Made by a program: the position numbers and the translations under genes
Assembly (NCBI GenBank): GCA_951406725.2
Contig: OX597832.1
Coordinates: 37,572,001-37,636,000 of the forward strand
Direction of reading: 5' to 3'
From: Octopus vulgaris
Lineage: Eukaryota
Length of the DNA stretch: 64,000 bases
Part shown: one piece after another, positions 1,002 through 1,420 of the stretch
Position numbering within the stretch: position 1 is the first letter of the stretch
Layout: the number at the start of each line of letters is the position of its first letter
The notes under the pieces: model-generated
Told to the model about the DNA's origin: nothing
Databases searched by the model: none
What the model saw: the letters and a program-made list of their open reading frames with translations, nothing else

Positions 1002-1420
1002 GTAGTAAAGCTGTAAGGACAACAGAGAAAGATTGGATAGGTTTGACAGTAATACTCATCGGGGAGCCGTTTAGCTTAATGTTTAGAAAACTCAGTTGGT
1101 ATCTGAGGAGAACGGGTTCGAGTCCCGTGTTCGCCCTTAGGCAACATTTTTTCCCGTCTTATAAAGATAAATACTCAACCGTCCTCTGCTGTCCTTACAG
1201 CTTTACTGCCTTCGAAATTTACTTCCTTGTCTGTAATATATGACCTCTAAATCCACAAGTCTTTTCTTTCTCTGTTTATTTTCTCGTATTCCTTTCTGTT
1301 GAAGAGCGTAGGCTCGAAATGTAGAAGACTTCTCACTTGCTCGAGTGTCAAACTAATACACCTGCTTGTTGTTCATACACCTATCTTCGTCTTTTGTTTT
1401 TCTGTAAATTTCAACTATAT
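1002..1420 (+). mobile_element. Non-autonomous element: inverted-repeat-enclosed tRNA-like cassette, degenerate minimal-hammerhead-like motif, (TA)n end
   Basis: Inverted arms 1002-1027 and 1184-1209 (24/26). tRNA-like 1061-1135. TTGAAGAG-cgtagg-CTCGAAA at 1299-1319. The 3' end recurs at 35414-35460. Confidence 0.6.
1061..1135 (+). pseudogene. tRNA-like sequence (not a canonical tRNA)
   Basis: Perfect anticodon stem CTCAG/CTGAG with loop TTGGTAT. Perfect T arm ACGGG-TTCGAGT-CCCGT. D arm and acceptor spacing are aberrant. T6 at 1147-1152. Confidence 0.65.

Follow-up and report, generated by a model that had tools for sequence, protein, structure and literature searches.

Two short repeat units, referred to as unit A and unit B, lie side by side near the start of the window, i.e. 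the whole stretch of 64,000 nucleotides of Octopus vulgaris DNA that was analysed. The window is AT-rich, about one third of it is simple repeat, and it contains many SINE and LINE pieces. A search for reverse transcriptases in 39 of the 120 window ORFs gave a single, LINE-like hit. A broken LINE-like reverse transcriptase fragment was observed at 3900-4850 (+; Pfam RVT_1, E 2.2e-9); its part 4043-4477, presumably CR1/L2-like by its motifs, had no PDB match below E 0.66. Rfam models gave no matches at the gathering threshold, and the window-wide scan by E-value, judged from the 150 rows listed of 640, was dominated by miRNA models matching microsatellites. Features of the locus and its relatives are collected in Table 1.

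Table 1. Units A and B, their parts and related sequences, numbered from the first letter of the window.
Feature	Position	Strand	Remarks
Flank: piece of older, common SINE-like repeat	893-991	+	Ends where unit A starts
Unit A, whole	1001-1233		Decayed tRNA-like head, T6 run and 80-bp body, all behind an inverted 36-bp duplicate of the 3' portion of the body
Unit A, 5' arm	1001-1036	-	Inverted copy of body 1175-1210; 29/36 identical
Spacer or diverged leader	1037-1065	+	Single-copy depth
Decayed tRNA-like head of unit A, A and B boxes present	1066-1143	+	Rfam tRNA at 1072-1128, E 0.014, sub-threshold
T6 run	1147-1152	+	Counterparts: T7 (58065 copy), T6 (49385 head)
Unit A, body	1153-1233	+	Ends 17 bp past TTCGAA; depth climbs toward the 3' end
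TA-rich stub, probable A-B junction	1234-1242	.	A-type contigs stop at about 1235-1238 in 4/4 runs if none cross
Unit B: very abundant PLE-like repeat, 3' end only (5'-truncated); TA microsatellite follows	1243-1415	+	Very high summed contig depth from 1260 on
Minimal type I hammerhead-like motif	1292-1327	+	C3 = 1296, U at position 6 (1299), N7 = 1300, extra A 1303, helix II 1304-1315, GAAA, palindromic helix III, H17 = 1323
47-bp stub of unit B 3' end before (TA)n	35414-35460	+	44/47 identical
Different tRNA-like head, same T6-CCGTC trailer	49365-49589	-	Head-to-head with partial self-copy; ARAGORN 49385-49460
Weakly similar 5'-truncated relative of unit A (56901)	56794-56920	-	Ends in (TA)n; without arm, without unit B
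Diverged relative of unit A (58065)	57953-58199	-	Full head (starts 58134), T7, body, within a 61-bp inverted repeat to the 3' end; without unit B

Evidence from other loci was taken from the relatives of unit A within the window and from public contigs of four runs (three organisms), aligned to positions 975-1424 at 80% likeness. Abundance is expressed as summed contig depth relative to single copy, a measure that does not equal copy number. Joints, meaning short-read contig breakpoints, were evaluated from joint tables and not from read sequences. The statements below refer to 15 joints listed of 45, to 40 of the 59 variant rows for contigs over 975-1424, and to 32 unit B pieces listed of 39,285, two of which are the window locus itself. 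Run X1 may stem from the sample that also yielded the window. Run X14 served as an independent contig sample only; its RNA origin is a guess, and the lack of coverage of the head in X14 has no bearing on expression. Organism B carries the orthologous locus with both units at about 95% identity over 332 bp (record 17, 975-1305).

The initial annotation had described a 26-bp inverted repeat, matching at 24 of 26 positions (1002-1027 and 1184-1209), around a tRNA-like gene. The repeat was confirmed and its arm was found to extend to 36 bp (1001-1036 against 1175-1210). The 26-bp repeat folds with a z-score of -4.4, and none of 200 shuffles was equally stable. The masked window holds four inverted repeats of 24/26 strength compared to none in each of five shuffles, and tRNA-like heads followed by T6-7 and CCG are present at three of the window's four strong inverted repeats. 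None of the common SINE copies in the window has a 24/26 inverted repeat. At five of the seven differences between arm and body the arm has the letter that is common in other contigs: at 1175, 1179, 1181 and 1183 the majority agrees with the arm, and at 1210 two letters are common, one of them that of the arm. For 1189 a minority shares the letter of the arm, and position 1208 has no row among the variant rows listed. The 23 bp at the 3' end of unit A are missing from the arm at 1001 and thus form a one-sided tail, which is absent from the 58065 copy. The flanking repeat at 893-991 matches 16517-16595, 23294-23387 and other sites, at which the copies run on further. Inversions of other kinds were also observed, namely a long inverted repeat at 20380-21060 (142 bp, 87%) with microsatellite arms around a SINE 3' fragment, and short fold-back inversions lacking a tRNA head at 39257-39372 and 19542-19596.

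Between arm and head, the bin 1050-1064 had 1.0-1.1 times single-copy depth in all three DNA runs, compared to 3-11 fold for the head, and other contigs started to match at about 1067 in both runs computed. Since the spacer is single-copy, arm and spacer do not appear to be a feature of a master element. The spacer may also be a leader that has diverged, in which case placing the 5' boundary at the tRNA would be less secure. At position 1054 the window has A, whereas the only X1 contig covering the site and organisms B and C have T, reflecting either an allele or an assembly error.

The description of the head as a tRNA-like gene holds for the anticodon and T arms, both of which are perfect 5-bp stems, but not for the remainder, which is decayed. 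The D stem is broken, the best acceptor stem has six of seven pairs and only in a shifted register, and it may start at 1061. Rfam scored the head at 23.5 bits against a cut-off of 29, covering model positions 8-63 only, and ARAGORN made no tRNA call at 1066-1143. The intact, above-threshold cloverleaf of a functional tRNA gene is therefore lacking. Unit A resembles tRNA-derived SINEs in having a 5' tRNA-like head with A and B boxes, and differs from them in having a Pol III terminator ahead of its 3' end (T6 at 1147, T7 in the 58065 copy). A run of six T residues is a Pol III terminator by established rule; the T6 run would thus stop Pol III ahead of the hammerhead-like motif, as previously noted, and makes unit A SINE-like in its head but not an ordinary SINE. 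Four further runs of T4-T5 were counted in addition to the T6 run, and together these runs render Pol III transcription of the whole element unlikely. The T-run terminator is kept at three heads in the window. Pairing between leader and trailer around the head was suggestive at 49515 and weak at 1045.

The cassette at 58065-58137, previously proposed to resemble the one at 1002, proved homologous to unit A across head, T run, body and arm. The post-tRNA bodies aligned with a score of 63 compared to a maximum of 46 in 300 shuffles. The claim that the enclosing arms of the two copies are unrelated was wrong, as they are identical at 20 of 31 positions without gaps; both arms represent one homologous stretch of the body, which has diverged along with the respective families. 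The arms at 57953-58199 are unusual in being perfect over the inner 25 bp and the outer 13 bp and poorly matching in the middle, which is odd for uniform decay. The relative at 56901 scored 78 against a shuffle maximum of 77 and is borderline. Near the different head at 49365, the stretch 49365-49719 consists of a tRNA-like head placed head-to-head with a partial copy, the leader of one being complementary (11/12) to the T6-CCGTC trailer of the other. This pair abuts a module with a decayed CUGAAGA hammerhead-like motif, and the module recurs at 30130-30262 before (TA)n.

Unit A could also be the 3' end (pseudo-LTR) of a longer and possibly autonomous Penelope-like element (PLE) with a tRNA-like Pol III unit and terminator in its 3' UTR, all copies seen being 5'-truncated. 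Body depth increases toward the 3' end from 7 to 136 times single copy, as both this explanation and the one preferred below would predict, and both the retention of the terminator at three heads and a weak similarity of the spacer to the leader of the 49515 copy point in the same direction. It is contradicted by the start of other contigs at about 1067 in both runs computed, by the single-copy spacer and by the 58065 copy, which begins 4 bp ahead of its acceptor stem. A longer parent element is for these reasons considered quite unlikely.

The 3' end of unit A is uniform in its spacing. The copies at 1233 and 56901 both end 17 bp after TTCGAA and continue into TA, the arm of the 58065 copy contains 18 bp of similar sequence at the position of the unit A end, and TA or TACA repeats follow all three members. 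Six of the 15 joints listed (of 45) fall in the unit A region. Joint 1154|1186, seen in organisms A and B, corresponds to antisense sequence that stops at 1154, joined to sense sequence starting at 1186; single-copy depth at position 1137 in X4 leaves no other order. The joints 1036|1125 and 1083|1150, found at one common depth in X4 (39.1), were read as antisense sequence running from about 1207 to 1083 with sense sequence from 1150 onward behind it, the other reading being excluded by single-copy depth at 1050-1064. Joints 1039-1184 and 1036-1204 imply two further arm pairs, and 1006|1211 is an ordinary copy. Four loci thus display four pairs of arm inner end and forward start: (1175; <=1066) at the present locus, (1188-equivalent; full head) at 58065, and (1154; 1186) and (1083; 1150), both deduced from the joint tables of organisms A and B. 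As inversion and truncation points differ among loci, the inversion appears to be made separately for each copy, in agreement with the earlier proposal that it arises at insertion. Arm and sense copy overlap at all four loci, so that the 3' part is duplicated and not merely inverted. No common word of at least 6 bp, as expected for a target site duplication (TSD), was found at the three boundaries tested. Direct partial tandems of the pseudo-LTR type were absent from the in-window copies, and no backward joint was present among the 15 of 45.

These breakpoints bear directly on two other origins. A MITE or another element with fixed terminal inverted repeats (TIRs) and a captured tRNA gene would account for the 58065 copy, in which the perfect outer 13-bp and inner 25-bp repeats reach the end of the element. 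Arm ends and lengths vary by locus, however, the arm at 1001 ends 23 bp inside the 3' end, the spacer is single-copy, and neither a fixed TIR nor a TSD was found at the boundaries tested. The variable breakpoints largely refute this explanation, which is regarded as very improbable, and the original distinction of the cassette from a fixed-TIR MITE was upheld. An ordinary LINE-dependent tRNA SINE, with inversions resulting from twin priming or later fold-back repair, would explain the 5' tRNA head, the short length and the microsatellite tail, and LINE fragments are present within the window. Twin priming inverts sequence without duplicating the 3' end, unlike the arm-body overlap seen at 4/4 loci. 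The T6 run after the head and the absence of a TSD likewise do not fit a LINE-dependent SINE, and within the one window the body of unit A matched no other repeat end. The LINE-dependent origin is therefore held to be improbable.

Unit B begins 9 bp downstream of unit A. The hammerhead-like end had been annotated as part of the tRNA-headed element, which was not supported. Searches for unit B on the 3' side of the copies at 58065, 56901 and 49385 gave only scores within shuffle range, leaving none of the two in-window relatives of unit A (58065, 56901) with a unit B; a comparison of unit B with two other hammerhead-like modules was within shuffle range as well. None of the 15 joints listed (of 45) links A and B at any other locus, so that the link was observed at the 1002-1420 locus only, in two organisms. 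Ten of the 30 other unit B pieces listed extend at least 200 bp upstream without a listed piece on A, although this is no proof, as there is one row per record. Across 1245 the X14/X1 depth ratio climbs in steps, from about 10 through 62 to more than 100 per thousand, indicating two contig populations, and the loose contig letters upstream of 1264 match those of the window no further back than about 1243. In addition, the arm at 1001 copies the end of A and not that of B. The absence of B at the relatives, the step in the ratio and the end copied by the arm led us to read A and B as separate insertions meeting at the TA stub, and the features probably represent two elements rather than one. 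One composite element, whose head, body and hammerhead tail would either move jointly, forming a family or subfamily similar to Sm-alpha, or have been joined by template switching in one insertion, is viewed as unlikely on the same evidence. It would account for the two units being on the same strand, only 9 bp apart, and both present at the orthologous locus of organism B. The 15-bp bins over 1230-1259 had 42-94 fold depth and were never single-copy, so some copies may span A and B.

From 1260 on, the summed contig depth of unit B was 1,900 to 124,000 times single copy, again not to be equated with copy number. Depth peaked on the hammerhead-like motif at 36,000-124,000 fold compared to 10,000-26,000 fold on its flanks. 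The recurrence of this 3' end at 35414-35460 was verified (44/47). The annotated register of the motif, with C3 changed to U and a helix II of 1 bp, was incorrect. When moved by three bases the core reads C3 (1296), U4, G5, U in place of A6, N7 (1300), G8 and A9 followed by an extra A; helix II has 4 bp, is closed by a G-C pair and carries a tetraloop, and is followed by GAAA and the UA site at 1322-1323. Helix III of this copy is not palindromic; the palindrome holds with the majority letters in other contigs. Position 1320 is mostly C in other contigs (85% in X1), so that helix III becomes palindromic, and A at 1324 (99%) gives helix I a canonical first pair. With the majority letters the motif has the features of minimal PLE hammerheads, i.e. 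helices I and II, G10.1-C11.1, an extra base after A9, a palindromic helix III and an NUH site. The polymorphic motif sites among the variant rows listed were N7 (T, A, C) and H17 (A, T), both of which are free in the fold. No match of this quality was found in 30 shuffles.

The core CUGANGA is not present in unit B: position 6 is U, and no A at 1299 occurs among the 40 of 59 variant rows listed. The Rfam hammerhead models gave no match to the motif up to E 10, and no covariation was seen. Judged from its predicted fold, the motif is a candidate ribozyme that may cleave after 1323, with a non-canonical core. A change at position 6 can strongly reduce Mg-dependent cleavage, by analogy with A6C, a known natural hammerhead variant with lowered Mg-dependent cleavage according to the available part of PMC7151607. 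The motif is single in the window and there is no tandem at this locus, so the tandem units of retrozymes, each with a hammerhead, are not seen. A different arrangement was observed at 49795-50631, where direct and inverted partial copies contain two hammerhead-like motifs with canonical cores (50111 and 50466; helix II 3-5 bp), forming a typical PLE-type insertion unit. Motif scans of viral and prokaryote genome contigs gave no matches, and the sole motif match in a metagenome contig (L001) lies inside bacterial coding DNA with dissimilar flanks and was rejected as a chance match.

In the available portion of PMC8557442, PLE insertions are described as having at their 5' end an inverted copy that is itself 5'-truncated, along with a tail of 30-40 bp on one side and a bias for (TA)n, features said there not to be seen in the target-primed reverse transcription (TPRT) of non-LTR elements. 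Both strands of AT-rich DNA are cut and extended by a PLE protein, whose reverse transcription starts at two sites inside the template that mark the limits of the tail; hammerhead cleavage was dispensable for it in vitro (PMC11167929). The tail of unit A at this locus, 23 bp, is shorter than the 30-40 bp of PLEs, and one of the three in-window members (56901) has no arm. No autonomous partner of unit A was found among the window ORFs scanned. From the insertion geometry we infer that unit A was mobilised by a PLE enzyme. The explanation preferred, to which we give about an even chance, is that of two adjacent insertions, in which unit A is a tRNA-headed retroposon moved in trans by a PLE enzyme and unit B belongs to a separate PLE-like family. 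Of the idea of a Penelope-mobilised SINE, the PLE-type geometry was supported; Pol III transcription of the whole element is unlikely, and unit A is no ordinary SINE.

According to this proposal, unit A would be a non-coding, tRNA-headed retroposon family of roughly 170-190 bp, mobilised in trans by the reverse transcriptase-endonuclease of a Penelope-like element acting on TA-rich target DNA. Both target strands would be nicked and primed. Two cDNAs would begin close to the template's 3' terminus (at about 1233 and about 1210), leaving the one-sided tail, and would stop at random points; once they were joined back to back, a long sense copy would lie behind a shorter antisense one. Transcription by Pol III from the head alone would yield an RNA of 80-90 nt without the body; given the stop at T6, a read-through transcript or a longer precursor would have to supply the template. 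As for unit B, it would be a truncated pseudo-LTR end from another, very abundant family of PLE-like elements that has a minimal hammerhead variant, and it would abut the TA tail of A.

The known systems closest in insertion structure are the endonuclease-positive PLEs (Penelope/Poseidon, Neptune, Naiad) and the non-autonomous Chlamys elements, e.g. MRC1, which in the accessible sections of PMC8557442 share with unit A a 5'-terminal inverted copy that is 5'-truncated, a tail on one side only (23 bp in unit A), a TA-microsatellite end, the lack of a clear TSD and strong 5' truncation. Unlike the PLE units described in these sections, unit A has no ORF, no hammerhead and no direct pseudo-LTR at the locus, and it has a tRNA-like head with a terminator. 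Unit B resembles the minimal hammerheads of metazoan PLEs, as far as these are presented in the available text of PMC4209133, in the 4-bp helix I, G10.1-C11.1, the extra base between 9 and 10.1, the palindromic 15.2-16.2 and the mostly single and scattered occurrence; it differs in the U at core position 6, the sole core variant named in that text being U3-A8. The octopus elements tRNA-CORE and tRNA-Deu and the Ceph-SINEs with RTE parts, as covered by the accessible parts of PMC8967140 and PMC5786205, have a 5' tRNA-like head with A and B boxes, a short body and a simple-repeat tail in common with unit A. In contrast to them, unit A has T6-7 right after the head, inverted duplications of the 3' end and no LINE-like tail found in the window.

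Sm-alpha of schistosomes, described with Sj-alpha in the available portions of PMC2770079 and PMC7229834, also has tRNA-derived sequence beside a hammerhead, and the animal non-LTR retrozymes lack autonomy and are proposed to be PLE-dependent (bioRxiv 10.64898/2026.07.22.740005, available part). In these partly available sources Sm-alpha, Sj-alpha and the retrozymes have canonical hammerheads in tandem units, whereas the motif here is minimal, single and probably outside the tRNA unit. Cassandra, Helenus and Ajax (TRIMp3), from the accessible text of PMC10886601, likewise have a small-RNA-derived Pol III unit in a non-autonomous, LINE-independent retroelement, with a terminator conserved in Cassandra; their two LTRs, PBS, PPT and 4-5-bp TSDs were not seen in unit A. 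No description of a tRNA-headed, PLE-dependent element was found in the literature searched, which lay outside the repeat databases Repbase, Dfam and SINEBase and most subscription papers. PLEs make up 6.83% of the O. vulgaris assembly (supplement of PMC13282606), and with their insertion geometry known, either unit may sit in an automated library under another label.

On the basis of its sequence, unit A most likely works like a non-autonomous PLE with a SINE-like head. A further-reaching interpretation, possible but clearly short of even, is that of a SINE-like class parasitising Penelope-like instead of LINE machinery, in which the RNA ends would be set not by a hammerhead but by a tRNA module equipped with a terminator, which would either be passed in a single read-through, as in Cassandra, or be excised by RNase P/Z. 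As a separate part of that interpretation, unit B would be a hammerhead variant whose U6 is kept in at least ten thousand copies and which may be either active or repurposed as a protein-binding fold.

SINEs are by definition parasites of LINEs. Small-RNA-headed parasites of LTR elements are a recent addition, according to the available part of PMC10886601. An experimental demonstration of how the inverted ends and tails of PLEs are made is still missing (PMC11167929), and the many short copies of unit A with their variable back-to-back joints would constitute a natural data set on both. If true, a tRNA-headed family bearing PLE insertion scars would fill a third slot beside the parasites of LINE and LTR elements.
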